Origin: a phage
Length of the DNA: 43,803 nt
Assembly: GCA_018167155.1 (NCBI GenBank)
Contig: GCA_018167155.1_4332.1
Reading direction: 5' to 3' (one strand)
The notes below the pieces were generated by a model, which saw only the letters and a list, made by a program, of their open reading frames with translations, was not told where the DNA came from and did no database searches. This document shows positions 1 to 43,781 of this stretch, in pieces (position 1 is the first letter of the stretch; the number at the start of each line of letters is the position of its first letter). A program made the translations under genes and the position numbers.

Positions 1-30
1 AAAAAAAATCCCGGCTGGGTCAGGGCCGGG
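1..30 (-). terminator. Rho-independent terminator ending the leftward lysis operon
   Basis: Minus-strand transcript forms a CCCGGC...GCCGGG stem (about 10-30) followed by a run of 8 U (plus-strand A1-A8), 67 nt downstream of the lysozyme stop. Confidence 0.7.
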
Positions 31-96
31 ATAAAACTGGAGAGCAGAGGGATGGAACAGGAGGTGATTTAAGTATCGTCGGATTAGTCTTGGGTG

Positions 97-585
97 TCAA
101 CCTTTCACCGCGCGCCCGATAGCCTCTGCCTCTTGCCACGGTTTACCGTCAAACAGCGCCAGGCGACCGGCGGTACGGCGACGCAGGCCGAGGAGCGGTT
201 TGCCGTTCTGGTTGATGAACAGCGCCAGCTTAGCCCGCAGCGTCGCGATATCCCCGGAACGCAGCGCCTTACCCGTGCCAGTAGTAGCGGCAATCACACC
301 AGCACCCGCGTTATAGACCAGGTCGCACACAGCATCGAAATGTGCCTGTGTCAGTGAATGGTGTGCTGCCGCATCAACCGCGGCAACGGCCTTAGCCATA
401 TCGCGATTCAGTAACAGGAGGCCTTGCCCGGGAGTGATTGTCTTACCTGGTGTTACGTCTGGGCCATAGTGTCCGTAACCAATAGTCAGGTACTTCTCGT
501 TTGGTGTAGCACGATACGCAGTTCCGCGGAACCCCTCAAACGCGGCGGTAAAATGCAACCCGTTATCTGAAATGTTTCGAGACAC
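97..585 (-). CDS. Endolysin, glycoside hydrolase family 24 (T4-type lysozyme)
   Basis: ORF track 97..636 contains the motif FEGFRGTAYR...YLTIGYGHYG typical of phage lysozymes with catalytic Glu. Track start is TTG at 636; a GTG at about 585 preceded by GGAGGA is the more likely start. Confidence 0.85.
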   Translation of the reverse strand: MSRNISDNGLHFTAAFEGFRGTAYRATPNEKYLTIGYGHYGPDVTPGKTITPGQGLLLLNRDMAKAVAAVDAAAHHSLTQAHFDAVCDLVYNAGAGVIAATTGTGKALRSGDIATLRAKLALFINQNGKPLLGLRRRTAGRLALFDGKPWQEAEAIGRAVKG

Positions 586-835
586 GCTTATGTCCTCCGT
601 ATGACAGCCACGCCTGACGAATCTGACGCAGCGCAACTAATGTGATTAATGTCTCAGGCAGCGTCGGCGACATGCTGCCCTGTAACAGGTGGATACATCC
701 GGCGGCGCAGACGATAGCAGTCAGGATATAGAGCACCCGACCAAATAGCCCGTCGTCTACGCTGGGATGGTATACGTTAAACAGCGATGTGCCCCCGATT
801 GCCAGCATACCACCGAACCAGAATAACTCATTCAT
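563..835 (-). CDS. Holin-like small membrane protein
   Basis: ORF track 563..874; ATG start at 835 (MNELFWFGGMLAIGG...). About 90 aa, two hydrophobic helices and a charged C-terminus, directly upstream of and overlapping the lysozyme gene. Confidence 0.65.
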   Translation of the reverse strand: MNELFWFGGMLAIGGTSLFNVYHPSVDDGLFGRVLYILTAIVCAAGCIHLLQGSMSPTLPETLITLVALRQIRQAWLSYGGHKRVSKHFR

Positions 836-1136
836 CCGGGCCTCCTCGACGTGCGATGTATTCTCCGGCGACAATACCGGAGAGACGGGAATAGATAGGC
901 ATCCAGAGAATAGCGATTATGAAGCCCAGGCCTGCGATTTCACGGTCGCCCGTGATACCGAACCATTGAGCCGCGAGAGGTGCGCCAAATACGGCGCAAG
1001 TGAAGCCAGTTGCAATAAAGCAGAAGCCGTCTATGGGGCCAGAAATAACGGACTTATGTTGTCGTAGTCCGATTACCCCACCGGCTAGTGCGGCAGTGAG
1101 AAGCCAGCCTGTCACTGTTTCAGTAAATTTATCCAA
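828..1136 (-). CDS. Holin or antiholin-like membrane protein
   Basis: 102 aa with multiple hydrophobic segments, TTG start preceded by GGAGGA, overlaps the next holin gene by 8 nt. Confidence 0.55.
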   Translation of the reverse strand: MDKFTETVTGWLLTAALAGGVIGLRQHKSVISGPIDGFCFIATGFTCAVFGAPLAAQWFGITGDREIAGLGFIIAILWMPIYSRLSGIVAGEYIARRGGPDE

Positions 1137-3822: not shown

Positions 3823-3856
3823 AACCCTCACTCCTCTGTCTCGTTCCGATAAGTGA

Positions 3857-3885
3857 ATAGTATCCTATTATGTTGGGGTGTGCAA
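3857..3885 (-). promoter_or_regulatory. Sigma70-like promoter (TTGCAC-N17-TACTAT) with AATAG-N4-CTATT palindrome
   Basis: Plus-strand gtgcaa 3880-3885 and atagta 3857-3862; palindrome AATAGTATCCTATT at 3856-3869. Confidence 0.6.
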
Positions 3886-4787: not shown

Positions 4788-7028
4788 ATGTCCGATGTAA
4801 TTTTATCCTACTCTTGGTCCCGTCGCAACGCGCGGGCAGAGAAAAAGGATATAAACGTCAGAACCACCCACACGGCAACACTGGACGACCTGAAAGAGTT
4901 AATCCGGCCGCTTGATGCTGTTCGTGGTGGGATTAACCCGAAGACCGCGCCCGGTTATATCACCGCCGCGTGCGACTCGACGCACAGCACCGTAAAAGAC
5001 CCGGAAACAGGGGACTTTAAGCAGGCGCGTAAAGGCTTCTTTTATCGCTGTGATGCGTCTGTAAGCAAATCGTCGCTGGCGTACCTGGACTTTGACAGCG
5101 CAACGCCGGAAGAGTACCAGGAAGCTGTGCGCCTGGTTAAGCGCAGCCGCCAGGCCATGTGCCTCTACACCACGGCATCACATACCGACGAATCGCCGCG
5201 CTTTCGCGTCGTTATGCCGCTGGCCCGTCCGGTCGAAGGTGGTAACATCATCCGTGTTCGCCACGGATTGCTGGAGCACTTCTTCAAAGGCATGGGCGCG
5301 GATCGCAGCGGGTTCACTCTTTCGCAGCCGATGTACCTGCCGCCGGTTGGCTCTACCGTTATCTGGTCGCGCCGCAACGACCTGATTGACCCGGACGAAT
5401 TACTGGAAGGCATCCCGGATTACGAGGTGAGCAGCGCATCTGACTACCAGATACCGGAAGAACTGCGCACTGCATTTACCAACGCATTCGAGGCATTAGC
5501 GTTTGAGTACGGCGGCATCATGACACCCCGCGGCCTTAAGATGCCGGCCACACCAGAACACGCCGAAAACTACAGCGACCCGACGCCGCGCCATGACGAC
5601 TTCCTGCTGTGCTTCCCGCGCGAGGGATATGAAGCGCCGAATGTAACAATGATTCACGACACCGACATTACGGCAACCGAAGGCATGTCACCGAAAGAGG
5701 TGTGGAAATACGCGTGCGATGCGACCGGGCTGCCGTTCGGTGAAGTGGCTGAGGCGATAGGATGGGGCGCACGTGAATCTGCCTCATGCAGCCTTGACGA
5801 CCTGGAAGACGACGAGGACTCAGAGGATGGCGAGCTACCGGAACCAGTAAAGGCTGATTTCATCGTCGAAGGGTACATGCCGTCGGATTGTATCTGGGAT
5901 ATCGTCGGGGAATCTGGCACGTACAAATCGTTCTATACGCTGGGGATGATGTACCTTAGCGCCGCCGGATACCGGTTTGCCGGGGCTGATACCCAGCGTT
6001 GCCACCATTTCTATATCGACGGTGAGGGTGGCGCGGCCACACGTACACGTATTGATGCACTCGCGGCTAAATATGGCGAGGAAGGTAAAGATTACGTACA
6101 TGTCATCGACATGGGCGAAGTTGGAAAACTGAAAAGCCTGATTAAGCTAATGCGCGAAACTGCTGGCGACGAGCCAATTGGGATGGTTGCCTTTGACACA
6201 CTCAACCAGACGCTGGCGCTGACGATTGATAAGTTCGACGAGAATAGTTCATCAACGGCAATCGGCATGGGTAAAGTTATAGCCATCCTGAAAGAAGTTC
6301 GCGACGCGACTAGAGCCGCAGTAGGCGTTGTTCACCACACACCGAAGGGTGGAAAGAAAGCCCGTGGCAGCGGGGCATTGTACGCGGGCGTCGACGTGGA
6401 ACTGACAATCGAACGCGCTACTAACCAACAAATAAACGTATACCACTCAAAATTTAAGCACGGTCCTCAACAGAAAACGGTTGGTATGGTTCTGGAGTCT
6501 GTACAGTTCCGTGAAGCTCCGCCTCCAAAAGAGTACCGCGCGGTTGAGTTCCTCGGTAGCACGGAGGAATACGGCACAATCGTAAACCTCGACCTGCCTG
6601 AGCCGCACAAAGCGCTTGTTCTGATGCCGTGGGGTTTCGAGCCGTTCAAGACCGACGAGGAGAAAGAGCGGGAAGAAGGGCTGACAAAGGAAGGTAAAGA
6701 AAACGTAAAGAATGCCGTAAAACGTGGGAAGGATGAAGGGTGTAAGGAATCAATACTCGCTGCGCTGGAAGACCTGCAGCAGTCCGACGACACTGGACGC
6801 GGTTTCACCCAACGGCAGATAGTAGCGAACTCTGGCGACCACGCCATCACCAACCACCATCTTGAGAAGATGCTGAAAGACGGTGAGTTGATGCTTGGGT
6901 GTGATATTGACGGTGAAGTTATTCCCGGTACATACCGGATACCGGAAAAGATGGGTGACAGATTAAGACCGAAGACAATATACGAACCTAATGAAATGCT
7001 GATAGTTACAGAAGAGGATTTAGAGTAG
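4788..7028 (+). CDS. Primase-helicase-like replication protein (N-terminal AEP primase-polymerase motifs, C-terminal RecA-like P-loop ATPase)
   Basis: ORF track 4746..7028 (GTG); ATG at 4788 after AAGGA. N-terminal LDFDSA (DxD) and ASHTDESPRFRVVMPL (sxH) are AEP primase motifs; C-terminal Walker A GESGTYKS and HHTPKGG suggest a RepA/DnaB-like ATPase. Confidence 0.6.
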   Translation: MSDVILSYSWSRRNARAEKKDINVRTTHTATLDDLKELIRPLDAVRGGINPKTAPGYITAACDSTHSTVKDPETGDFKQARKGFFYRCDASVSKSSLAYLDFDSATPEEYQEAVRLVKRSRQAMCLYTTASHTDESPRFRVVMPLARPVEGGNIIRVRHGLLEHFFKGMGADRSGFTLSQPMYLPPVGSTVIWSRRNDLIDPDELLEGIPDYEVSSASDYQIPEELRTAFTNAFEALAFEYGGIMTPRGLKMPATPEHAENYSDPTPRHDDFLLCFPREGYEAPNVTMIHDTDITATEGMSPKEVWKYACDATGLPFGEVAEAIGWGARESASCSLDDLEDDEDSEDGELPEPVKADFIVEGYMPSDCIWDIVGESGTYKSFYTLGMMYLSAAGYRFAGADTQRCHHFYIDGEGGAATRTRIDALAAKYGEEGKDYVHVIDMGEVGKLKSLIKLMRETAGDEPIGMVAFDTLNQTLALTIDKFDENSSSTAIGMGKVIAILKEVRDATRAAVGVVHHTPKGGKKARGSGALYAGVDVELTIERATNQQINVYHSKFKHGPQQKTVGMVLESVQFREAPPPKEYRAVEFLGSTEEYGTIVNLDLPEPHKALVLMPWGFEPFKTDEEKEREEGLTKEGKENVKNAVKRGKDEGCKESILAALEDLQQSDDTGRGFTQRQIVANSGDHAITNHHLEKMLKDGELMLGCDIDGEVIPGTYRIPEKMGDRLRPKTIYEPNEMLIVTEEDLE

Positions 7029-7281: not shown

Positions 7282-7354
7282 TTGATATGTGAATAGTACC
7301 ATATTAATTATTTTATAAAAGCACATTGACATGTGAATAGTTCGCTATTATAGT
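7282..7354. promoter_or_regulatory. Divergent control region with two copies of the AATAG-N4-CTATT operator-like palindrome
   Basis: Copy 1 AATAGTACCATATT at 7292-7305; copy 2 AATAGTTCGCTATT at 7336-7349 inside TTGACA(7326-7331)-N17-TATAGT(7349-7354), which drives the + gene at 7386. A minus-strand TACTAT over copy 1 may serve the XRE gene. Confidence 0.55.
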
Positions 7355-20217: not shown

Positions 20218-22773
20218 TTAATTAAAACCATTGCTGAATCCGTCGGAGAAACCGCTGCCGTATGGCGCGACGCCGTCGTATTTATAGAATCCGTCGTCAT
20301 AGTTGTAGCCAGTAATCTTGACCGTGCGGTCGTCGCCAGGGTCGATTGAAGAAACAACTATCTTCTGAGCATTATGCCTTGCTTCGTTGCCGAATGAAAA
20401 CTCAGTTTTTAGCGCACTATTCCCCGTGTAGATTGCCTCCTCCGGCGCGGAGAGCATAATCACTTCGCGGTCGTGGCTTCCTTTGATAACAGAGATACTC
20501 TGCACAGAGCCGTCGCGCTTCTTAAGAATGATGGAGTGGTCGTCCCCGGGAGTAAACGTAACAGGCTGTGACAGCGTCAGCGTAAGCCCGTTAACGTCAA
20601 CAACATAACCATCTTGCGGGGCGATGCGGGAGCCTTTAACTACGCTGATTACACCGCCGGGTGTAGCGAGAGCGCCTTCTTCTGTAGCTTCGAACTCTAC
20701 GACAACTTTACTTAACGCATTGCGCTGATAGCGACGCCGCGCCAGCCAGTACGCCTGCTGATAGTTACGCACGCCTTTCGATTCGTACTCCTCCGTGTTT
20801 GCGCCGAGTTCTTCCGGGATATAAATAGTTTCCTGTACGTTAGTATCCGGGTCAATGTACGAGAACGACAGGCTATCGTAGGTCGTAGAATCATTAAACG
20901 TGCGGGTCCATTTCTCTGTACCAGTAGTTTTGCTGCGGTGAGTGAACACCATCTCGGGCCCTGCAACCGGGCGGTCGAAGCGCAACATAATATCCGCGCC
21001 TTTACGGTACGCGGTACAGAACACGGCTTCGGCTATAGTCTGAACGATGTCCTGCATCGTGGTGTCGTAATCGTCGAACGTGTAGCAGAACTGACCTGCT
21101 AATTCGCTGCCAAAATAGGACTCAATTTCTTCTTGCACGGCAAGCAACTTATCCATGTTTGCCGTTGTCAGTTCCAGATTACCCACCACCGGGTCGCGAG
21201 CCAGTCTGATTAGCGACTGCACCGCTTGAGTATTTGGGGTCATTACTGTATCGAATACCCCATTGCCTAAGTATTTGTAGCACATCTCTGTCGCGATCAT
21301 GCGCAGTTCCGGGTTGTCGATACTGGCTGCACGCGGTGTCTGTTTACGGGCACAATGTACGGTAGTTCGGTTGCCGTAGTGCGGGGTTGTGTCCAGAGAC
21401 TGCCCGTACAGGTTAATGAAGGTTATCTCGTCGCTTACCGTTCCGTCGTAGTCCTTGTCGAAATTCGTTACACGGCGCATACGGGCGCGGAAACGCGATG
21501 CAGTAGGCAACTGCCCGTAGATAGACGTACCGACGTAATCCGTGCTATTACCAGTAATCGTAGCACGTACCGTGTAAATGTCGCTCAACGGGTTACGCTG
21601 AGAGTCAATCATCTGGTACTGGAGTTCTACCGTTACGCTGGTGCGATTATAGCCGCCGTCATATTTGTAGAGGCCGTTTTGCCCTGCAACGTTAGCAAGC
21701 ACACGGTCAACTTCCCCGCGCACCATGTAATACCAGTCGGTCAGGGATACGTCATAGGTGTTGCTCGGGCCGATAAACGTATCTGAACGCTCTGTTAGCG
21801 TGTACGTCTGCCCGCTAGTCAACGCGGCCCAGTTAGACGCCCCGTTTACGGCTAATCTTACTTCGAAGTCGTCAACGTATAAAACCTCAAACGAGCCGTT
21901 CAGGTTAGTGACATCAGTAACGTCAAAGTTGCTCAACACCGCGACATCACCGACGCTAAGAAACTCAGAAAAAGCAGAGTCGCCGGACGGGTCATAAATG
22001 TAGCCGGTGTTTGAAATACGTTTGGCTGTGCCGTCGGCGCTTGGGTTAGCCCCGATGTCGTTTGGCGCTTTCAGTACAATACCGTCAACGTCGTCGTTGG
22101 AGTATGTCACATAGAGTTTCTGGTCAATGACGTCGCCGATTTGTAGTTGCGGCGATGCGGTGTTGTTCGGTGACGTGTACGGTGCATATACAGCAACAGA
22201 GGAACCGGTGATGTCGCTTATCAGGGTATCGCCTTCCGTGACGCCATCAGACTCGATATGCAGATGCCCGCGCCCGGCATCATAGTACGAATACTCCAGC
22301 AAAGCACCCGTGGAGTTGAACGCCTTATACGTCTGCATCAGGTCGTTAGGGATTGTCTGCACAGTCCCGCAGATGTCATAAGAGCGCTCATAGGGGCGCG
22401 GCTTGTTGGAGCGGTCTGTGAGACTGTTATTAGGCGATGTTGTCTGGTTGTTAGTCGCCGTGTAGTTGGCGTTGGTGGCCGTGTTCAGACCGAACAACTT
22501 GGCAATTGGCTTAAGGATAAAACCGAACACCTTACTAACTGCACCGAGCGCCCCGCTACCGGCGCCCTCAATAATGTGGTACACGGCGTCTTCGTCTTTG
22601 AGTGCGTCGAAGTCGTCGGTGACATCAGTATCATCGCCAATCTCGCCCAGGTAGACGCGCACCGGCACGCCGTCCGGGATACGGTTAACGACAAACTCCA
22701 TCGGCATCCCGACGTGTTTTGTACGGTCGAAAGCTCCATCAGCGTTTCGCGTGTAGTGCAGGATTATCGCCAA
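20218..22773 (-). CDS. Central tail / host-specificity protein (gpJ-like)
   Basis: 851 aa, last large gene of the tail module before the tailspike; call is by size and synteny. Confidence 0.5.
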   Translation of the reverse strand: MAIILHYTRNADGAFDRTKHVGMPMEFVVNRIPDGVPVRVYLGEIGDDTDVTDDFDALKDEDAVYHIIEGAGSGALGAVSKVFGFILKPIAKLFGLNTATNANYTATNNQTTSPNNSLTDRSNKPRPYERSYDICGTVQTIPNDLMQTYKAFNSTGALLEYSYYDAGRGHLHIESDGVTEGDTLISDITGSSVAVYAPYTSPNNTASPQLQIGDVIDQKLYVTYSNDDVDGIVLKAPNDIGANPSADGTAKRISNTGYIYDPSGDSAFSEFLSVGDVAVLSNFDVTDVTNLNGSFEVLYVDDFEVRLAVNGASNWAALTSGQTYTLTERSDTFIGPSNTYDVSLTDWYYMVRGEVDRVLANVAGQNGLYKYDGGYNRTSVTVELQYQMIDSQRNPLSDIYTVRATITGNSTDYVGTSIYGQLPTASRFRARMRRVTNFDKDYDGTVSDEITFINLYGQSLDTTPHYGNRTTVHCARKQTPRAASIDNPELRMIATEMCYKYLGNGVFDTVMTPNTQAVQSLIRLARDPVVGNLELTTANMDKLLAVQEEIESYFGSELAGQFCYTFDDYDTTMQDIVQTIAEAVFCTAYRKGADIMLRFDRPVAGPEMVFTHRSKTTGTEKWTRTFNDSTTYDSLSFSYIDPDTNVQETIYIPEELGANTEEYESKGVRNYQQAYWLARRRYQRNALSKVVVEFEATEEGALATPGGVISVVKGSRIAPQDGYVVDVNGLTLTLSQPVTFTPGDDHSIILKKRDGSVQSISVIKGSHDREVIMLSAPEEAIYTGNSALKTEFSFGNEARHNAQKIVVSSIDPGDDRTVKITGYNYDDGFYKYDGVAPYGSGFSDGFSNGFN

Positions 22774-23129
22774 AATTCAATCTCCGTGTACGTGTCTCTG
22801 AGGTCCGCCAGCCTGTCAAGCCGTACCTGACGTGAGGCAAGCTCGCAATGGCTGACCATCCCGTCGAAGTAAACTCCTGCGTGCCACACGATACGACCCC
22901 CACGGCGATACCCCATAAGCACCGCACAGAAGTTTTCAGGCTTATCAATTTTCGTAAGCCCTTTTGTGTTGCGGTGGCCTTCGTCAAACGCTTCGTTAAT
23001 TGCCGTCGGGCTTGTAACGTCGAACGCCGGAGTATCTAGCCCGGCATCCGCGCGGACAATGCGCACGTGATGCCAGCAATTGCGCTTGCGAAAGTCGTAA
23101 GGTATGCCCGTGTAGTCGTTAATATTCAT
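22764..23129 (-). CDS. Minor tail protein (gpK-like, possible Cys/His peptidase fold)
   Basis: 121 aa between the distal tail genes and the J-like gene; Cys (RNCWHH) and His (WHAGVY) spacing reminiscent of NlpC/P60. Weak. Confidence 0.35.
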   Translation of the reverse strand: MNINDYTGIPYDFRKRNCWHHVRIVRADAGLDTPAFDVTSPTAINEAFDEGHRNTKGLTKIDKPENFCAVLMGYRRGGRIVWHAGVYFDGMVSHCELASRQVRLDRLADLRDTYTEIEFWR

Positions 23130-27338: not shown

Positions 27339-27367
27339 TTGCACACCCCAATATAATAGGGTACTAT
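27339..27367 (+). promoter_or_regulatory. Sigma70-like promoter TTGCAC-N17-TACTAT with AATAG-N4-CTATT palindrome
   Basis: TTGCAC 27339-27344, TACTAT 27362-27367, palindrome AATAGGGTACTATT at about 27355-27368. Confidence 0.6.
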
Positions 27368-27396
27368 TCACTTACACCAACAATGAGGGGTTTAAA

Positions 27397-33584: not shown

Positions 33585-34634
33585 TTAAGCACCGACACCA
33601 GTTACCAGGAAGGCAATCGGTACATGCTTACGGTCAACAACACGGTTCCAGTTAGAGGCGTTCGCCAGGTCCTGCCAGGAAGCGGAACGCGCAACAGTCT
33701 CGGTGCCGTTACCGGTGATTACCGCGCTGGTGAAGCTGTAACCAAACGGATGCAGCAACCAGGTCTTACGTGACCACAGGGTTTCAACACCACCACCGTT
33801 ACCACGAGACGCTTCATACTCATAGTGCAGCGGTTTGACCGGATTGCCTTCACCGTAACCGATAGCGCCGTTACCGAAGATGATAGAGATGAACTTGCGG
33901 CTACCACCGGAGCCAACTACGGTCATGCTGTCGTCGACAATAACGCGGTAGCCCTGGTAGGTGGCGAACAGGGTGTCGTTGTCGGCGTCTTTGATGAAGT
34001 CGATAAGCTGCTGCTTACGCGCCTGCGCATAAACGAAGCTGTGCATCGCGATAGCACCCAGCACTTCACCACCGTTATCCATCAGAGCATCACCCATAGT
34101 CTGGGTAGCGTCGATGAACGCGCCAGCGTCGAAGCCCAGAGTAGCGGACACGTCGATAACCATGTCATTCTGCTCGTGGTAAGCATCAGTAGCGGCTACG
34201 TTGTCATTGTACAGGCCGAGCGCGGTAGCAATCAGACGGCGCTGTGCCTGACGCTGCCAGAAGTTATCAAGACGGGACGCTACGGATTGCAGCGGGTTCT
34301 GGCTGGTGAGTTCAACAGTCAGGTCAGCCTGGCCAAAACCTTCGTTCAGGTACGCAACGCGGGCCATCATCTCACCAGTCTGCACATTACGCGGGGTGGC
34401 TATGTCCTGATACACATCGTTCGAGTAATTAGGCTCGATGGATGTGTCAATCGCTTTCCAGAAAGGAATGTTGGCGACGTTGGACGAGCCGCGAGCAATC
34501 TCTGCGGCGTACGGAGTCGGGGTCAGAATACCGGACTGGAAGAACGCGGTTTTTTCTACCGGGTCCTCGGTCATGTAAGACGCCAGGACCGGGATGTTGC
34601 CAGTTACGATATCGCCGATAGTGGTAATTGCCAT
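33585..34634 (-). CDS. Major capsid protein
   Basis: 349 aa directly downstream of the scaffold gene; SD GAGGAAATAATA; size and position fit an HK97-fold capsid protein. Confidence 0.75.
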   Translation of the reverse strand: MAITTIGDIVTGNIPVLASYMTEDPVEKTAFFQSGILTPTPYAAEIARGSSNVANIPFWKAIDTSIEPNYSNDVYQDIATPRNVQTGEMMARVAYLNEGFGQADLTVELTSQNPLQSVASRLDNFWQRQAQRRLIATALGLYNDNVAATDAYHEQNDMVIDVSATLGFDAGAFIDATQTMGDALMDNGGEVLGAIAMHSFVYAQARKQQLIDFIKDADNDTLFATYQGYRVIVDDSMTVVGSGGSRKFISIIFGNGAIGYGEGNPVKPLHYEYEASRGNGGGVETLWSRKTWLLHPFGYSFTSAVITGNGTETVARSASWQDLANASNWNRVVDRKHVPIAFLVTGVGA

Positions 34635-34636
34635 TA

Positions 34637-35338
34637 TTATTTCCTCAGGGCTTTAAGTTGCCGTTCAAATTCGGCAGGGTTCGATTTATACAGAGCTAAA
34701 CGCTCCGCTTCACTCATGTCTTTAAACGCTGGTGCGGCCCCGCCGCATTTGCCACCGGAAGCCCCGCCGCCGGAAGCTGCATTTGCTTTAATCAAATGCG
34801 AAAACGCTTTGTGTTCACGCAGGTATTTGCGGAACTGTTCCGGGTCAGTCGTGATTACGTTACCGTCTGCGCCAACAAACTTAGTAACCACATCATCACC
34901 TTCGAACTCAGTCTTAACGAACGGTGCAAGAATGTCCACTGCTTCCGGGGTGATAAAGTCGCCCGCGAAAGAGCCTAACACCGCTTTACGTTCGCTGCCG
35001 AGGATGCGCTCAGCCATTTTGGTGATGCGGCCATCTTTCTCGGCTAACACCGGGTCATACTGGCTACGAATCGTCTTTTCGAACTCGTCCATTTTACCAG
35101 CGGCTTTTAACGCCTCCTGGTGTGCACGTTGCCGTTCTTCTTCGGCCTCTTTTGCTTTGCGAGCGGCTTCTTTCTTCTCCGCCAGCAATGCTTCCTGATT
35201 GGCCTTAAGACCGGCAACTTCTTTCTCAATCAGCGCCTGAACTTCTTCAGCGGTGAACATTTTCGGAGCGTCACCGCCACCGGCTTTATCTTCTGCCCCA
35301 GCTTCTTCCTGGAACGGATAACGTAAAAAACGATTCAT
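34637..35338 (-). CDS. Capsid scaffolding protein
   Basis: ORF track 34637..35392; ATG at 35338. Highly charged coiled-coil sequence (EALLAEKKEAARKAKEAEEERQRAHQEALKAAG) immediately upstream of the capsid gene. Confidence 0.65.
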   Translation of the reverse strand: MNRFLRYPFQEEAGAEDKAGGGDAPKMFTAEEVQALIEKEVAGLKANQEALLAEKKEAARKAKEAEEERQRAHQEALKAAGKMDEFEKTIRSQYDPVLAEKDGRITKMAERILGSERKAVLGSFAGDFITPEAVDILAPFVKTEFEGDDVVTKFVGADGNVITTDPEQFRKYLREHKAFSHLIKANAASGGGASGGKCGGAAPAFKDMSEAERLALYKSNPAEFERQLKALRK

Positions 35339-35420
35339 AGTCAGTATGTCCCCTGGACGTTGGAACCCGGGCCACCCGGATTTACATGTCAAGAATAAAT
35401 TATTCCAACATGCAAGGCAA

Positions 35421-35684
35421 CTATTCCAGAATATTCCTCACGTAATCCTGCAACATGAACACTTTCAGTCTCAGTTGCCGTACGCATTCGGCATTCTGAA
35501 CGTCGATAGCCAAATCCTCGTCAGCGTCGTTACTTGGCGGCGCCAGTTTGCACGGCGGCTGCATCATCGTCGTATCCGGGGATGGAATTGGCGTTGGCGA
35601 CGGCGCGGGACTTGAGCTGCACGCGCTCAGGGTCAAAAGTGCACACGCTGCGACCAGGCGTTTTAATGTACTTAACGACTTCAC
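35421..35684 (-). CDS. o-spanin (Rz1-like outer-membrane lipoprotein), overlapped with the i-spanin gene
   Basis: 87 aa in a different frame; signal peptide with lipobox LTLSAC, then Pro-rich SSSPAPSPTPIPSP. Starts inside the Rz-like gene and extends past its stop. Confidence 0.65.
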   Translation of the reverse strand: MKSLSTLKRLVAACALLTLSACSSSPAPSPTPIPSPDTTMMQPPCKLAPPSNDADEDLAIDVQNAECVRQLRLKVFMLQDYVRNILE

Positions 35685-35916
35685 GGGTAATCACCTCTGA
35701 TTTCGTCTTGCCTTCGTTGTCAGCGGCTGCGGCCTTCGATTCATCCTGCTGCTGCCGTTGTGTTTTCTTCGCTAACTCAGCCTGTGCTTTCTGCTGTTGC
35801 TGCGAAACGAGATTCTCCCGGCCTTCGCCCCAGCCGATGCGGTATTGATAGTAGCCGTGTGCGTATAACAGGATGATGAAACATGCTCCCGCTACGACAG
35901 TTGCTTTAAGATTCAT
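35530..35916 (-). CDS. i-spanin (Rz-like)
   Basis: 128 aa; N-terminal transmembrane segment TVVAGACFIILLYAHGYY, then Gln/Ala/Lys/Glu-rich coiled coil; perfect SD AAGGAG 5 nt upstream. Confidence 0.65.
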   Translation of the reverse strand: MNLKATVVAGACFIILLYAHGYYQYRIGWGEGRENLVSQQQQKAQAELAKKTQRQQQDESKAAAADNEGKTKSEVITREVVKYIKTPGRSVCTFDPERVQLKSRAVANANSIPGYDDDAAAVQTGAAK

Positions 35917-36140
35917 GTTTCTCCTTTCTAGATAAGTAAAGCCCCGCCTTAAAGCGGGGCGCTAGTCCTTATCATTTAAACATAGAAACGGCGTAATCTC
36001 AGTAAACCAGTTACTTTTTACACAAGCAATAGAGTATGGCCCTTCCGAACGCGTCAGCGTAACTACACTCAGGACTTACGTCCCGCTCCGTTACCTGCCC
36101 GCGCCGCGGTCGCTTGTTCATACTTCACAAGCTCAGGTGG

Positions 36141-36184
36141 AGCTTAGCACATTTTCAGTTAAAAGTCAACTATTCGAATAGTTT
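36141..36184 (-). promoter_or_regulatory. Candidate leftward promoter (TTGACT-N17-TAAGCT) abutting a 16-bp perfect palindrome AACTATTCGAATAGTT
   Basis: Minus-strand -35 from plus agtcaa 36164-36169 and -10 from plus agctta 36141-36146; palindrome at 36168-36183. Confidence 0.35.
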
Positions 36185-36235
36185 ATTCCAACATTTACAA
36201 TTGAGCGGAATAACTGGAATAGGTAAATAAATAGT

Positions 36236-36264
36236 TTGCAGACACCAGTATAATAGGGTACTAT
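36236..36264 (+). promoter_or_regulatory. Sigma70-like promoter TTGCAG-N17-TACTAT with AATAG-N4-CTATT palindrome
   Basis: TTGCAG 36236-36241, TACTAT 36259-36264, palindrome AATAGGGTACTATT. Confidence 0.6.
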
Positions 36265-36298
36265 TCAGTTATCGAAGCGAGAGATAAGGGGCTTAAAG

Positions 36299-36535
36299 AT
36301 GAAAGAATTAATTATCGCGGTATTGACGACACTGGCAGTTTCGCTGGCAGTTTCGCTGGCAGTTTCACTGGTAATTGCTGCTGGTGTACGTAGCCTAGAT
36401 AAACACGAGTGTGAGAACTACGGAGATGTCACAGGCAGAGAGGTAATGTATAGTTACACAACTTGTTATGTGAAAACTGATAGAGGTTTTATCCCTCGTG
36501 GAGAACTTAATTTTAGAGCAGCGACACATGAATAA
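36299..36535 (+). CDS. Small membrane-anchored protein with tandem AVSL repeats
   Basis: 78 aa; N-terminal hydrophobic LIIAVLTTLAVSLAVSLAVSLVIAAGV encoded by three tandem 12-bp repeats, then a 50-aa Cys-containing domain; own promoter and terminator. Confidence 0.6.
   Translation: MKELIIAVLTTLAVSLAVSLAVSLVIAAGVRSLDKHECENYGDVTGREVMYSYTTCYVKTDRGFIPRGELNFRAATHE
36334..36369 (+). repeat. Three tandem 12-bp repeats (GGCAGTTTCGCT-like) inside the CDS
   Basis: Directly visible: ctggcagtttcgctggcagtttcgctggcagtttcactgg. Confidence 0.7.
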
Positions 36536-36538
36536 AAC

Positions 36539-36564
36539 TAAGGCCCCATAACGGGGCCTTTTAT
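36539..36564. terminator. Terminator hairpin between convergent genes
   Basis: AGGCCCC-ATAAC-GGGGCCT followed by TTTTAT; identical stem to the element at 38641. Confidence 0.65.
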
Positions 36565-37025
36565 CATTCTGGCTTAGTAACCTTCGCCGCCTTGCTTACC
36601 GCCTCAACTCCATCGGCATCGGTAACTTTAACGAAGTATTCGCCAACGGCATTAACCGTCAGGGACAGGGCCTCTTCCGGGGCGTTTACCACTTCCTTAC
36701 CGTCTTTGTACCAGGTCAGCGCGTATGGCGCTTTTCCAGCCTTAACCTCGACAGTGATAGTCGCGCTGCCGTCTACCAGTTCAGCGTCCTGGGGTTGTAC
36801 GGAGAAATACACATCACCTGCGTCCGCCAGATACGGAATCTCGTAAAACATGCCCGCCGCCGGTAGCGCAATACCGGTCTTGTCTGCAAACGGCATATCG
36901 TCTACCGGTGTACCGAGTACACTTTCGTCTTCAATAAACACCACGTTCTCGCCGGAGCCAGACACGCGGGCATACTGGACTACACGACGCGACGGCACAT
37001 CTGTTACTTTGAAAAAGCCCATCAT
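36564..37025 (-). CDS. Hypothetical structural protein with C-terminal Ig-like domain
   Basis: 153 aa; TITVEVKAGKAPYALTWYKDGKEV is Ig-like. Confidence 0.5.
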   Translation of the reverse strand: MMGFFKVTDVPSRRVVQYARVSGSGENVVFIEDESVLGTPVDDMPFADKTGIALPAAGMFYEIPYLADAGDVYFSVQPQDAELVDGSATITVEVKAGKAPYALTWYKDGKEVVNAPEEALSLTVNAVGEYFVKVTDADGVEAVSKAAKVTKPE

Positions 37026-38070
37026 TATTCCCCTTTCAGATAATCAGCAACACGTTTATCGAGTTCCGCCATCTGCTTAAGTGTGAGCGGATTCCCGAAA
37101 CAATCTACAGATATTACGCGAAACTCTTCTGGCGATATACCGCTGTTGCGGAAAATCTTACCTCGCACCGGGCCGAGGGCTTCATCCACGAACCACGCCG
37201 GTTGTTGTTTCAGGAACTCGTAGTAAGTGGTGTCTGCGCTTACCTGAGTACCTCCGTCCGCACCCTTAGCCGCACGTTTTGCACCTTTATCGAGGAAGTC
37301 GAACTCTGAACTGATTACAGGCGCAGTGGTCGTTCTGCAGTTAGGATGGAAAGGTGGCCTCGGCCCTTTGCCGATTTCGTATTCCTGCCCGTCCAGGCTA
37401 CGGCATATTGTTGATGTACGACTGTCGAGTGTGGCGACGATTTCGTATTTCTCGATGATGTCGTCGTTCTGGCGGTACGTCTCGTTGCGTGCTTCGTTGG
37501 ACACGTGAGACAGCGCAGTACGTATTACCGTAGCGGCGTTACGTTCAGAGATGTCAGCCAGTCCACCAGCGCCTACGACATTCTTAACAATCTGCCGTGT
37601 TGTTTGGCCTTGTACAAAGCCCATCTTAACGCCGGTTACCAGGCGAGCGACTTCGGTTTCACCCCAGCCAGACATCAACTTAGTGAAATCAACCGGCTTG
37701 TCGCTTAGCGATAGCGGTTGAAACTCGGCGGCGGCCCACACCTGTTCGGCGGTAGGCGTAACAAATTCCGCATTAACGTTGGTGGTAAGTGTCTTTACGT
37801 TCCACTCTGCTTCATATGCCGCCAGTTCCTTAAGGTCTTCTGTCAGCTTTGTCTGCCAGTCACCAGTAAGCCCTGTCAGTGCTTCTTCAAGGTCACGTAA
37901 CAGTTTATTCAGTCGCGCTGTGCTGCGACCGTCGTCGCCGAACAACAGCACCTGTCGTTTGATTTCGTCCCGCATTTCCCGGATGAACGGTGTGAGGTCT
38001 TTCACTTCGCCGGATGCGGTGCGTTGCAGCCATATCTGGTGGCTAATTAGGGATGTAAGTAAGCTCATAT
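37025..38070 (-). CDS. Head morphogenesis protein (Mu gpF / SPP1 gp7 family)
   Basis: ORF track 37025..38125; ATG at 38070 after AGGAGGG. C-terminal ICRSLDGQEYEIGKGPRPPFHPNCRTT matches the Mu F HPNCRC signature. Confidence 0.7.
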
Positions 38071-38112
38071 GCCCTCCTGTAGTATCGACAGTGTAACGTA
38101 TAAAAATAATAT

Positions 38113-38141
38113 TTGCAGACACCAATATAATAGGGTACTAT
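38113..38141 (+). promoter_or_regulatory. Sigma70-like promoter TTGCAG-N17-TACTAT with AATAG-N4-CTATT palindrome
   Basis: TTGCAG 38113-38118, TACTAT 38136-38141; the promoter-to-SD sequence is nearly identical to the 36236 promoter. Confidence 0.6.
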
Positions 38142-38167
38142 TCAGTTAACTTAAACAGGAGATGAAA

Positions 38168-38329
38168 ATGGTTACTTTGATTACTTGGGAACACGAAAAT
38201 AGTCAACCTGAAACGCGTGAATTCGAAACTGTAGCGGCTTGCTACCGCCTGGCGTCAGGCGGATTCTATAAATCACAGATTGTAAATGAGTTTGGAGTGG
38301 TGGATTATGAGTTTACGAAACAATCTTAA
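38168..38329 (+). CDS. Hypothetical small protein (hand-called, about 53 aa)
   Basis: ATG 6 nt after AGGAG; reads MVTLITWEHENSQPETREFETVAACYRLASGGFYKSQIVNEFGVVDYEFTKQS. Confidence 0.35.
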   Translation: MVTLITWEHENSQPETREFETVAACYRLASGGFYKSQIVNEFGVVDYEFTKQS

Positions 38330-38665: not shown

Positions 38666-40138
38666 TTACTGCGGTTGTTGTTGAGCCGACTGCGGAATCT
38701 CTCCTGATACCTGAGTAACCGCACCCAACGGCAGCGGCGCGTCCTCGATAGCGTTCTGAATATCCTCGTCTGTCCAGTCGATTACACCCGCTTTACGCAA
38801 CGCAGCATAATAAGCAGTAGCGGGTAGCAGGCCGGCGTTAATATCCGCCATCCACTGCGCTCGTTCGGGCGCGGTCATCGGTTGCAGGAAGAACTCCATG
38901 TTAAGTTTAAACTCAATCTCTGTGCCTTCACGCAACCCTAACATCGCGGCTACCCAGCGCAACGCATCGGTGTACGCCATGCTTACGTTACGCGCAATTG
39001 TCGCCATAACAGACGTGTCGGCGCCGCGTTGCAGGCGGGCCGATTCGGCGGTGATTTGCTGCGTCGGGGTGATAAGCTGTGCGCCAATCTGAATGGCCTG
39101 ATTCTCCTTATCCAGCATGTTCTGCTTGGCGAGGTTGTTCTCTCCAGCCTGAACCAGAAACGCGTTGCCGCCGTAACCGATGTTATGGCCTGAACGCGAC
39201 CCCATACGCACGCCGTGGGGGTTGGCTTCTTTCCACTGTTCCATGCTCATGTTCTCGCCAGGGGCGATGAACAGAGTGGGCTGGCCTACAACGAAGCTGG
39301 ATTCCTCATTGTCTGCGCTGTTGCGGAAATGTCCGATATTAAGCTCAGCCAACGGCAGCAAAGGTGCGTCGTCAATGGTTGCATCGTTGTTGCTCGCCCC
39401 AATGAACGTGAACGGGATTTTACCGCGCAACTGTTCGCCGAGTTCCGGGAATATCTCGATTACTTCGTCCTTAGCGCCACCTTCGGCATCGAAGCGGTAA
39501 ATGCGCTGGCGATAACGACCGTCAATCAGGTCAAGGACGCGGTATTGTTCGCCGAACTTTGTTTCGAACTCTGCACCAGGTTCTGAGTATTCCCATACCT
39601 CACGCAGCACGACCATTGTCACACGGTTAACTGAACCGACGCGGGTCAGTCGCCAGTTGATGATGTTCTCTGCGGTGTAGAATGCGATGACCGGGTTTAA
39701 TAATCCTGCGTTCTGTTCGGCTGCTGTTGCCGCTGCTGTCTCCGGCGCATCCACCAGCAAGCCCCCACGCCCCATTGAGTCAATCTCCATTAGCGTGTCC
39801 TGCGCGTGCTGCCACAGCCCGACACCGGAGCCATCAGCATTGCGCAACAGGTACTCCAGTTCAGGCGGGATAATCTGCTCAGGGTCTTTGTGCATCACTG
39901 ACCCCACCATCCCAGCCAGGGTACGTTTAGTGAAGTTGTAGCAAATAGCGCCGTTCTCGTATTCTTCCTGGCGCTGTGCAGCGTAGGTCTGGTCGGGTTC
40001 GTTCTTCCCGACATTTCGAAGATAGCGAATAAGGTCGCCTTCCAGCGCGTGTCGCACCTTCTGCCATTTATTGAAGTGATGCAGCCATTCCCGGTGTTTT
40101 GTCTTAACACCCTGATTCTGACCGTTCATAGTTAACAT
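38666..40138 (-). CDS. Portal protein
   Basis: 490 aa directly downstream of TerL; SD AAGAGGA; call rests on size and conserved TerS-TerL-portal-MuF synteny. Confidence 0.65.
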   Translation of the reverse strand: MLTMNGQNQGVKTKHREWLHHFNKWQKVRHALEGDLIRYLRNVGKNEPDQTYAAQRQEEYENGAICYNFTKRTLAGMVGSVMHKDPEQIIPPELEYLLRNADGSGVGLWQHAQDTLMEIDSMGRGGLLVDAPETAAATAAEQNAGLLNPVIAFYTAENIINWRLTRVGSVNRVTMVVLREVWEYSEPGAEFETKFGEQYRVLDLIDGRYRQRIYRFDAEGGAKDEVIEIFPELGEQLRGKIPFTFIGASNNDATIDDAPLLPLAELNIGHFRNSADNEESSFVVGQPTLFIAPGENMSMEQWKEANPHGVRMGSRSGHNIGYGGNAFLVQAGENNLAKQNMLDKENQAIQIGAQLITPTQQITAESARLQRGADTSVMATIARNVSMAYTDALRWVAAMLGLREGTEIEFKLNMEFFLQPMTAPERAQWMADINAGLLPATAYYAALRKAGVIDWTDEDIQNAIEDAPLPLGAVTQVSGEIPQSAQQQPQ

Positions 40139-40150
40139 TGAATAATCCTC

Positions 40151-41422
40151 TTAAAGTGCGAAAGTCACCGGGACGTTAATAACTGGTTTGCGAATCGGCA
40201 TTTCATATGCAATTGGGTATGTGGTTCCGTCATTCTGGTGGTCCACGCCGCCAGATTTATCCGGTTCGCCGTTCTTGTCGTAAGCCTGTTGCTCCAGGCA
40301 TCGCGCCGTAACTGGGCAAGCCTGTTCATTAATCATGACCATACCAGATTCAAGCGCCTTATTCATCGCCGATACGCGGTCTTTAACCGGCGGGTTTGTC
40401 GATTTAGCGCGTACTTCGAAACCGGCCTGCTGTAGCTGGGCGATGTCTGAGGTACTGGCGTTGTTGCTTTTACGGTTTTTGCCGCTGGCGTCCGGGTACA
40501 TAACGATATAGTGGCCCTTACTTTTCCAGCGTTCAGTTATAGCCCGCACTACATCCGGCGTATCGAACATATCAACCAACTCGGCAACAGCGTGCCACAC
40601 CTTCCCGCGTTGCACGTAAACTGTGCTCGCCATGTGACCTACGTTAAAGTCCTGCCCGATATACAGAGTCTCGCCAGGCTTGATTGTTTCGCGACTACTA
40701 TTTTTCCTGCGGTCGTAAGCGTAGTAGACCGTCCCAGCCGTGAGGTTCACGAACTCGCCGTTGATGTAGGCGTCGATCAACTGACCCGGGTATGTGTCGC
40801 GTAATGACTGCACATAATCTTCTGGCAGGAACGGGTTAGACAGGGTAGATGCCTGAATCATCTCGTAGCCTGGATTCTTTTTTACTACCCAGCGGTCATG
40901 TACGAAACGGAACCCTTCCGGCGTAGTGAACACGGAAACGGTATTAGCCGGTTTCGGCGTAATAGGTTTATACGTCCGCGGTAACTGGCGGTTACGGGCG
41001 ATTACTTTGTTCCACGCGTGCTCAGCGTGTTCCATGTTAAGGGTGTCCAATTCGTCGATTTTTGCACGAAACGATTCGTAGCCAACTATTCGTGCTGGAT
41101 TATCGAGTGTACGCAGGACAAAATCCCCGAATTGTCCTGAAGACGTATATATTATGTTGTCTGACTTGTTGTATTTGTACCGGATACCCCAGTCCGTCAG
41201 CTTCTCTTCCATACGAGGCGCAAGGATAAGACGTACCAGGTCGTAGGTAGGCTCGTACATGGCGATGATAGAATCGCTACCACCTTCCATACTGTCCAGT
41301 AGCGCGGAGTTGCACATAACCTCTGATTTCCCGGTGCCGAAGCCAGCTACGAACGCAGGGAACTTGCAATGCATACCGAGAAACGCGCCTTGCGGTTCTG
41401 TCGCCGTGATATTAACGTTCAC
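40151..41422 (-). CDS. Terminase large subunit
   Basis: 423 aa; Walker A FVAGFGTGKSE near the N-terminus, acidic nuclease-like C-terminal region; GTG start with AAGGTG SD. Confidence 0.8.
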   Translation of the reverse strand: MNVNITATEPQGAFLGMHCKFPAFVAGFGTGKSEVMCNSALLDSMEGGSDSIIAMYEPTYDLVRLILAPRMEEKLTDWGIRYKYNKSDNIIYTSSGQFGDFVLRTLDNPARIVGYESFRAKIDELDTLNMEHAEHAWNKVIARNRQLPRTYKPITPKPANTVSVFTTPEGFRFVHDRWVVKKNPGYEMIQASTLSNPFLPEDYVQSLRDTYPGQLIDAYINGEFVNLTAGTVYYAYDRRKNSSRETIKPGETLYIGQDFNVGHMASTVYVQRGKVWHAVAELVDMFDTPDVVRAITERWKSKGHYIVMYPDASGKNRKSNNASTSDIAQLQQAGFEVRAKSTNPPVKDRVSAMNKALESGMVMINEQACPVTARCLEQQAYDKNGEPDKSGGVDHQNDGTTYPIAYEMPIRKPVINVPVTFAL

Positions 41423-42546: not shown

Positions 42547-42777
42547 TCAATCCTCCATACTTAGTAGAACGTATCCCGGCAGGTAAACCCCAACGTCCGC
42601 AACATGGATAACGCGGCGGTAAACGATACGTCCTGTGTATTCGCCGTTTTCATATTCTCTCAGGCACAGAGTGTCGTCTTCCTTGAAATCGCGGTCGTTT
42701 AATCGCAGTTCTGCCAGCTTGATTCCTGCCATAACAGGCTCAAAATGCTCAGGTAATATCTTTAGTTCGTGAAACAT
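42547..42777 (-). CDS. DUF3850 / ASCH-like (PUA-fold) phage protein
   Basis: 76 aa; MFHELKILPEHFEPVMAGIKLAELRLNDRDF...EYTGR matches the DUF3850 pattern as I recall it. Confidence 0.5.
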   Translation of the reverse strand: MFHELKILPEHFEPVMAGIKLAELRLNDRDFKEDDTLCLREYENGEYTGRIVYRRVIHVADVGVYLPGYVLLSMED

Positions 42778-43752: not shown

Positions 43753-43781
43753 AATATAGTAGGGTCGCAGGTAATAGTCAA
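43753..43781 (-). promoter_or_regulatory. Sigma70-like leftward early promoter TTGACT-N17-TATATT with a degenerate AATAG/CTAGT palindrome over the -35
   Basis: Plus agtcaa 43776-43781 and aatata 43753-43758; about 30 nt upstream of the first early ORF. Confidence 0.5.

Follow-up and report, generated by a model that had tools for sequence, protein, structure and literature searches.

A probable Jersey-family spanin pair within the head gene module of a Kagunavirus-like phage, preceded by a candidate structured leader

Why should spanin genes stand among the head genes of a phage, apart from the holin and endolysin genes, and does such a position say anything about when the outer membrane is disrupted? 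The question is raised by two overlapping genes at 35421–35916 in contig GCA_018167155.1_4332.1 (NCBI GenBank assembly GCA_018167155.1), a stretch of 43,803 nucleotides (nt) that was analysed whole and is called the window here. A preliminary description, made from the letters alone, had taken the split to imply different timing or regulation of outer-membrane disruption. From gene anatomy, family membership, conserved synteny and distance on the circular map, all of which were observed here, we conclude that the pair very probably forms a two-component spanin of canonical type, a member of the overlapped 'Jersey' family in its usual place in the head module, and that distinct timing of outer-membrane disruption is not implied by the split position.

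The inner-membrane partner (i-spanin) starts at an ATG with AAGGAG 5 nt upstream and matches the 'Rz-like spanin' family phrog_2536 over its full length (PHROG profiles, E=2.5e-56). Residues 1–21 hold its sole strongly hydrophobic 19-mer (Kyte–Doolittle 1.76), and the protein is thus predicted to be a small one with a single N-terminal transmembrane domain, like the i-spanin of two-component systems. A single cysteine, Cys92, lies beyond the membrane segment and would be periplasmic by the predicted topology. AlphaFold, run on the single sequence, returned one long helix spanning residues 3–63 (predicted local distance difference test 70–93), and homologues were found by tblastn in 663 phage records.

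The outer-membrane partner (o-spanin) starts at a GTG, 7 nt downstream of GAGGTG, and its N-terminus consists of the signal MKSLSTLKRLVAACALLTLSAC, which ends at the lipobox cleavage position and is followed there by SSSPAPSPTPIPSPD. Judged by regular expression and hydrophobicity rules, the signal has a K/R n-region, a hydrophobic core and the lipobox L19-S-A-C22 with Ser23 at +2, in other words the lipobox cysteine and the lack of Asp at +2 expected by rule of an outer-membrane lipoprotein. The mature part (66 amino acids, 10 of them Pro) runs through a Pro-rich linker into a conserved C-terminal domain that carries Cys45 and Cys67, both predicted, like Cys92 of the partner, to be periplasmic. 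Its matches are again to 'Rz-like spanin' families (phrog_5672, E=1.5e-29; phrog_1267, E=1.2e-20), and the C-terminal domain recurs in 665 phage records (tblastn). The two genes overlap by 155 nt in different frames, the o-spanin lying in the +1 frame, and a full-length lipobox open reading frame (ORF) in this frame is kept in five lineages, namely Kagunavirus, Jerseyvirus, Cornellvirus Shemara, Hafnia TS33 and Dhillonvirus EP23. Among these the signal peptides differ, while the lipobox Cys and the domain ...PC...(A/P)D(A/P)DEDL..DV(Q/K)... stay constant. A rule-based scan for lipoprotein signals from every start codon of the circularised genome returned this o-spanin and one ORF in the tail genes without a family match. 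The latter (22739..22948, minus strand, ...GIAVGVVSC) was taken as chance, since it lies out of frame within the tail genes and matches no PHROG. The anatomy therefore agrees with the preliminary description, which had proposed an overlapped Rz/Rz1-type pair made of an i-spanin with an N-terminal transmembrane segment and an out-of-frame lipoprotein with lipobox LSAC and a Pro-rich stretch; both ORFs are where it placed them, and its further statement that these are the only spanin candidates holds as well, in that this o-spanin carries the sole signal with family support.

In many deposited genomes the o-spanin is annotated from an internal ATG, as a protein of 47–52 amino acids without signal peptide or lipobox. 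Misannotated loci are L001 2322–2465 (Bas74_0009), L009 3708–3851 (SETP13 gp09), L007 3719–3862, L003 4908–5066 (EP23p06) and L006 4501–4996; the DNA itself does hold full-length lipobox ORFs. PHROG family 5672, with 47 positions, mirrors the truncation, and in the record of ABTNLsp11241 the i-spanin and o-spanin labels are interchanged. The GTG-start ORF of the preliminary description is the better call than the 47-amino-acid fragment of the databases.

The family to which both subunits are homologous has been described. In the census of Kongari et al. 2018 (PMC6139136), 'Jersey' is the largest overlapped family among the tabulated i-spanins, with members that include Jersey, SETP3, SE2, K1G, K1H, K1ind1-3 and the Dhillonvirus phages EP23 and HK578. 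Phage Jersey itself has an overlap of 155 bp, equal to the one found here, and the family's o-spanin cysteines are constant at positions 45 and 67 (PMC6139136).

How far, then, does this pair stand from the remainder of the lysis genes? The holin and lysozyme genes that had been reported at 97–1136 were recovered there through PHROG and Pfam matches (Table 1). On the linear map they are some 34 kb from the spanins, as the preliminary description said, and separate they are; the distance itself does not stand. The best matches to 34600–38200 are Kagunavirus phages of E. coli at 91–93% identity (megablast, 486 phage records, many of which label the genes at the spanin site 'Rz-like spanin'). The last 600 and first 600 bases of the window form a single contiguous alignment in K1H and UTI-CM001, and the BASEL relative Bas74 is a circular record of 43,096 bp. 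The window is thus the whole, arbitrarily linearised genome of a Kagunavirus-like siphophage of the Guernseyvirinae, whose virion DNA would be circularly permuted. Measured over the junction, the endolysin stop (97) and the i-spanin ATG (35916) are 7,984 bp apart and share a strand. In Bas74 the circular map runs likewise from the holins and endolysin (39759–40908) through about ten small genes on the same strand to terS, terL, portal, MuF, Hoc-like gene and, at 5486, the spanins. The 34-kb gap is an artefact of linearisation, a circularly permuted genome having been opened at an arbitrary point, and the true arc is about 8 kb. The lysis cassette stands just upstream of the packaging and head genes, much as it does in lambda, and the spanins come a few genes further along the same late-strand array. 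The window was opened exactly where the U-tract of the endolysin terminator ends. More generally, distances in linearised, circularly permuted phage genomes can deceive, 34 kb on the line being 8 kb on the circle here.

Even so, the spanins are not clustered with holin and endolysin, with terminators lying in the 7,984 bp between them. Such clustering is typical of two-component spanins rather than defining. The spanins of T4, which are unlinked to t and e, complement lambda Rz/Rz1, so linkage to holin and endolysin is not required for function.

Could the separation nevertheless place the pair under a regulatory programme of its own? In this alternative, which we consider unlikely, promoters of their own and a structured leader, whose terminator-like hairpin occludes the ribosome-binding site, would set the timing or dosage of the spanins apart from that of holin and endolysin. 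Several features speak for it: the predicted endolysin terminator is followed by a new promoter, the spanin unit has a bidirectional terminator on its upstream side together with promoter-like sites P1 and P2, and the leader RNA described below covaries, its hairpin bracketing the Shine–Dalgarno sequence in four lineages. The predicted terminator at 1..31, a strong one, which the consensus scan missed because its loop is 9 nt long, appears to end the holin–endolysin unit, and the hairpin at 36540..36560 would end the MuF/Hoc unit and set apart that of the spanins. Given this endolysin terminator and the promoter-like sites and structured leader of the spanins themselves, the two groups of genes are probably separate transcription units.

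Separate transcription does not, however, amount to separate action. In the lambda paradigm spanins build up in the envelope by late expression and act once the endolysin removes the peptidoglycan (PMC6139136); with spanins gated in this way, timing is set by the holin and not by spanin transcription. Such post-translational gating holds for lambda and T4 alike (PMC6139136). In Dhillonvirus the pair lacks a leader and is joined to the end of the MuF gene, so the leader is dispensable for spanin function, and here scaffold and capsid too lie behind the leader and are perhaps its real target. The sole RNA-seq study found for Kagunavirus assigns lysozyme, MuF and capsid genes to one broad temporal class, a coarse grouping that again argues against a programme apart. 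The different timing of outer-membrane disruption that the preliminary description drew from the split is thus not warranted.

We favour instead a canonical mode of action for the pair, in which topology in vivo, peptidoglycan gating and membrane fusion would follow the lambda and T4 paradigm. The pair would head its own unit, composed of promoter-like sites, leader, terminator-like hairpin, i-spanin, o-spanin, scaffold and capsid, and sharing it with scaffold and capsid would mean that spanins are made together with head proteins. The N-terminal helix would anchor the i-spanin in the inner membrane; the o-spanin would be exported, lipidated on Cys22 and, because Ser and not Asp stands at +2, sorted to the outer membrane. 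The C-terminal domains of the two would bind across the periplasm, the conserved cysteines probably giving disulfide-linked dimers, and the complex would build up during late expression, kept inactive by the peptidoglycan mesh. Triggering of the holins (563..1136) and breakdown of the wall by the endolysin (97..636) would then free the spanins to fuse or disrupt the outer membrane and so complete lysis.

The position itself is shared by relatives. The order MuF-like gene, Hoc-like gene, variable cargo, spanins, scaffold, capsid was found in Bas74, K-02, ABTNLsp11241, dunkel, SETP13, Shemara and TS33, the Jerseyviruses in this comparison being ABTNLsp11241, dunkel and SETP13; in Cornellvirus Shemara the i- and o-spanin annotation is that of the Center for Phage Technology. 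The location between MuF-like and scaffold genes given by the preliminary description accordingly holds as regards the head cluster and needs one amendment, in that a Hoc-like gene and a 78-amino-acid ORF also stand between MuF and the spanins. Dhillonvirus EP23 has no Hoc-like gene at this site: its i-spanin comes directly after the head morphogenesis (MuF) gene, the i-spanin start overlapping the stop of the latter, which implies co-expression with head genes, and its reverse-strand cargo comes after the spanins and before the scaffold gene. Identity of the spanins, measured by tblastn, is 90–98% at the amino acid level in known Kagunavirus phages (92–98% in those of the K1G type), 64–76% in Jerseyvirus and ~40–57% over the C-terminal parts in Dhillonvirus. 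That relatives keep spanins at the same locus was thus observed in Kagunavirus, Jerseyvirus, Cornellvirus, Hafnia TS33 and Dhillonvirus, and the same order across these genera points to a position ancestral to their head module, a layout that appears to be common to Guernseyvirinae and Dhillonvirus.

This synteny also bears on the idea that the pair is a recent moron or translocated cassette of this phage, dropped into the plastic slot that separates the Hoc-like gene from the scaffold gene. The slot is indeed a hotspot for reverse-strand cargo that differs between phages. Nonetheless, the spanins hold the same position in all examined Guernseyvirinae genera and in Dhillonvirus, their divergence parallels that of their neighbours (62–96% nucleotide identity), and none of these phages has an alternative spanin adjoining the lysis cassette; we therefore give this explanation very little credence. 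Less probable still is that the lipobox ORF arose by chance and that the 128-amino-acid protein has no part in lysis, being a membrane or head-assembly protein, for although neither protein has a Pfam or NCBIfam match and many records annotate just a 47-amino-acid fragment of the second ORF, the full-length lipobox ORF persists in five lineages despite signal-peptide turnover, 665 records share its conserved C-terminal domain, it bears the genome's sole family-supported lipoprotein signal, and there are the PHROG spanin matches.

Several points weigh against the canonical reading of the pair. Pfam and NCBIfam scans matched no spanin model with either i-spanin or o-spanin, the sole match being a sub-threshold one of the o-spanin to the lipoprotein LppU. 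AlphaFold gives nothing reliable past residue 63 of the i-spanin, which leaves its C-terminal half without a confident model, and the coiled coil ascribed to the protein in the preliminary description is putative. No experimental test of any Jersey family member was found in the literature. The promoters and the transcription start are predictions at the level of consensus matches, and the Kagunavirus RNA-seq paper sorts genes into coarse time classes without naming those for spanins.

Regardless, spanins amid head genes are neither new nor peculiar to this phage; they are the family norm and have been published as such. The genome papers on Schulenberg and fBC-Eco01 state that spanins are separate from holin and endolysin or the lysis cassette, and for Golestan the separation is implicit (spanins, ORF7-8; holins and endolysin, ORF66-68). 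The finding as given therefore changes little, the spanin position being on record in the spanin census and several genome papers; it confirms that phages of the Kagunavirus type carry the full holin–endolysin–spanin set.

The leader RNA upstream of the i-spanin gene is the sole part of these findings that may be new. The 355 nt from promoter-like site P1 to the i-spanin ATG (35917–36271, minus strand) are 96.9% and 96.3% identical to those of Salmonella phages dunkel and SETP13, respectively, as against 71–84% for the adjacent i-spanin, scaffold and capsid genes (capsid, 83% at the nucleotide level). Counterparts lie at L008 3001–3355, L009 3001–3355 and L006 4184–4500, and 161 of the 183 phage records that carry the segment are 95–99% identical. 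A second leader type, present in other Jerseyviruses and ~60% identical to the leader here, is for most phage pairs again better conserved than the neighbouring gene. Spread of the module boundary by recombination offers a partial alternative account of such extreme identity.

Two parts of the leader fold into defined structures. For domain I, covariance model R1 found one copy per genome at 52 of 52 loci and aligned the two leader types from end to end; 97.7% of the alignment cells were paired and 15 of the 30 pairs had changed on both sides, compared with ~30% of cells and 0–4 such pairs when the partners were slid as a control. This alignment was fitted to the covariance model, and the compensatory pairs are seen in plain MAFFT alignments as well. 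Several leader pairs are G-U in some sequences and G-C in others, in keeping with an RNA transcribed from the spanin strand. The second part is the extended stem-loop that ends at the i-spanin ATG. Its apex (35960..35941) is a G+C-rich terminator-like hairpin with exchanges of CG to UA, GC and AU, and at its base a G/U-rich 5' arm is predicted in all four leader types to pair with the spacer between the Shine–Dalgarno sequence and the AUG.

Taken together, a tentative case, which we hold to be almost evenly balanced, can be made that the ~220-nt leader (~36134..35917, minus strand) is a structured RNA of a kind hitherto undescribed and confined to Guernseyvirinae. Such an RNA could act in cis as a checkpoint of the late spanin–scaffold–capsid operon, by terminator read-through, occlusion of the ribosome-binding site or both; alternatively, it could be a discrete non-coding RNA of ~195 nt that ends at the hairpin. 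If functional, the leader would give new access to the control of late genes in phages that are much used in therapy and typing. Between the lysis cassette and terS, a small gene (42547–42777, minus strand) matches PHROG 986 'RNA-binding protein' (E=1.7e-36), and its product could be relevant to the leader.

The distribution of the element is narrow. In IMG/VR it is confined to contigs that also carry this spanin, and a pattern scan of viral contigs returned the same Guernseyvirinae contigs and four chance matches without a model hit. A degenerate pattern run on genome contigs gave 80 loci, all rejected as chance (G+C-rich genomes, covariance scores of at most 20 bits, E≥0.2); that pattern was too loose to be informative on bacterial genomes. 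Neither in Hafnia TS33 nor in EP23 was a leader detected by the covariance model, the element being absent from EP23, and in Shemara the top match of the model falls at the expected place with a weak, non-significant score (12.5 bits, E=0.52). Rfam 15 scans of leaders from four lineages gave no family at the gathering threshold, the best scores over the leader being ~14–16 bits (wcaG 16.2, CC0196 14.2) against gathering thresholds of 35–42, and the best anywhere in the scanned stretch 18 bits against 55. ARAGORN found no tRNA or tmRNA in the leader, and no convincing antiterminator alternative to the terminal hairpin was recognised by eye. A 36-amino-acid ORF within the leader (36121..36011), annotated in some records, is not conserved and was rejected as a gene: L037 lacks its ATG, and type B leaders have a deletion there. 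A long-range pairing proposed by RNAalifold (AGUAUG/CAUACU) is broken without compensation in four sequences and was replaced by the local hairpin P1.

The promoter-like sites ahead of the leader have features of their own. The genome has seven copies of the 19-mer within promoter-like site P1, TGAATAGTACCCTATTATA, where 0 would be expected: on the minus strand at 38126–38144, 36249–36267 and 27352–27370 and on the plus strand at 2613–2631, 3854–3872, 7290–7308 and 7334–7352. The three minus-strand copies are identical and lie upstream of the MuF, spanin and tail-chaperone units; every copy heads a gene block, and the inverted repeat GAATAG-N4-CTATTA overlaps the -10-like hexamer. The fBC-Eco01 paper predicted the same consensus with PHIRE and ascribed it to a phage RNA polymerase. 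None is annotated in the relative Bas74, and a host sigma-70 promoter with an operator is more likely than a promoter for a phage polymerase. Site P2 is conserved in an alignment of eight phages and would place a transcription start near 36134. Just upstream of its -35 hexamer lies an inverted repeat, TATTCC-N-GGAATA(A) (36184–36221), unique in the genome where 0.03 are expected; a related palindrome, GGAATAA-TT-TATTC (35400–35413), abuts a TTGACA between the o-spanin and scaffold genes, and Hafnia TS33 has GGAATAA repeats upstream of its spanin leader too. Repeats of this type may bind a late regulator.

Table 1. Coordinates of the spanin genes and of the features discussed with them (positions in the window)
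Feature	Coordinates	Strand	Basis or remark
i-spanin gene, 128 amino acids	35530..35916	-	ORF list; phrog_2536; hydrophobicity; AlphaFold; spanin annotation in relatives
o-spanin gene, 87 amino acids, GTG start	35421..35684	-	ORF list; lipobox; phrog_5672, phrog_1267; conservation
Overlap of spanin reading frames, 155 nt	35530..35684	-	o-spanin in +1 frame, offset 1
Holin	828..1136	-	phrog_2359
Second holin or antiholin	563..874	-	phrog_2508
Endolysin	97..636	-	Phage_lysozyme PF00959
Predicted intrinsic terminator after endolysin	1..31	-	8-bp G+C stem 31..9, U8 8..1; -13.8 kcal/mol
Promoter-like TTGACT-17-TATATT	43753..43781	-	near-consensus; heads unit of small genes through to terminase
Hoc-like Ig-domain gene	36564..37025	-	between MuF and spanins
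Bidirectional terminator-like hairpin	36540..36560	.	between Hoc-like gene (-) and 78-amino-acid ORF (+); consensus scan
78-amino-acid membrane ORF	36299..36535	+	reverse-strand; between MuF and spanins
Promoter-like site P1	36247..36275	-	contains 19-mer TGAATAGTACCCTATTATA at 36267..36249
Promoter-like site P2	36141..36169	-	TTGACT, 17 nt, TGc-TAAGCT; read from sequence; consensus scan silent
Leader domain I, 98 nt	36038..36135	-	hairpin P1 and long irregular hairpin with GNRA loop; covariance model R1
Extended stem-loop directly upstream of i-spanin ATG	35917..35989	-	terminator-like scan call; folds

Some neighbouring features deserve mention. The near-consensus promoter at 43753–43781 begins 22 nt past the endolysin terminator, across the junction, and the true start of the endolysin is probably near 582, as in Bas74. 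The reverse-strand cargo slot, bounded by the bidirectional terminator, is a plastic moron hotspot. In this phage it holds the 78-amino-acid ORF, which has an N-terminal membrane segment, is made in part of a 12-nt tandem repeat, LAVSLAVSLAVSL, and matches PHROGs of unknown function; elsewhere the slot is taken by an endonuclease VII (SETP13), a methyltransferase (dunkel), a phosphatase/metallophosphatase (Shemara) or RusA (EP23).

Among known systems, the lambda late leader (pR'-6S RNA-tR', with read-through by Q) and the put RNA of HK022 provide an analogy that concerns the leader alone. In lambda a promoter is followed by a leader of ~200 nt with a terminal terminator-like hairpin and then by late lysis and head genes, the same layout as here. 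The present leader differs in being highly structured and ultraconserved, it has no sequence or Rfam match, and no Q-like gene was identified in this phage. The spanins themselves resemble lambda Rz/Rz1, which likewise pair a type II inner-membrane protein with an outer-membrane lipoprotein encoded by shared DNA in different frames, and which have periplasmic Cys and a Pro-rich o-spanin. Unlike these partly overlapping genes, however, lambda Rz1 is wholly embedded in Rz, and the lambda pair directly follows S and R in the lysis cassette instead of lying ~8 kb downstream amid head genes; profile similarity to other 'Rz-like' PHROGs is weak as well (E=1e-6 to 5e-3). In P2, LysB and LysC lie within the lysis cluster. 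They are the prototype of the overlapped architecture seen here (PMC6139136) and belong to a different sequence family. PseT.3/PseT.2 of T4, of yet another family, are separated and not overlapped, in a phage whose holin and endolysin are unlinked even from each other. With the Jersey family, finally, the pair shares phrog_2536, phrog_1267 and phrog_5672, the 155-nt overlap, Cys45 and Cys67, the Pro-rich linker and the slot in the head module; there is no substantial difference, and the pair is best regarded as one more member.

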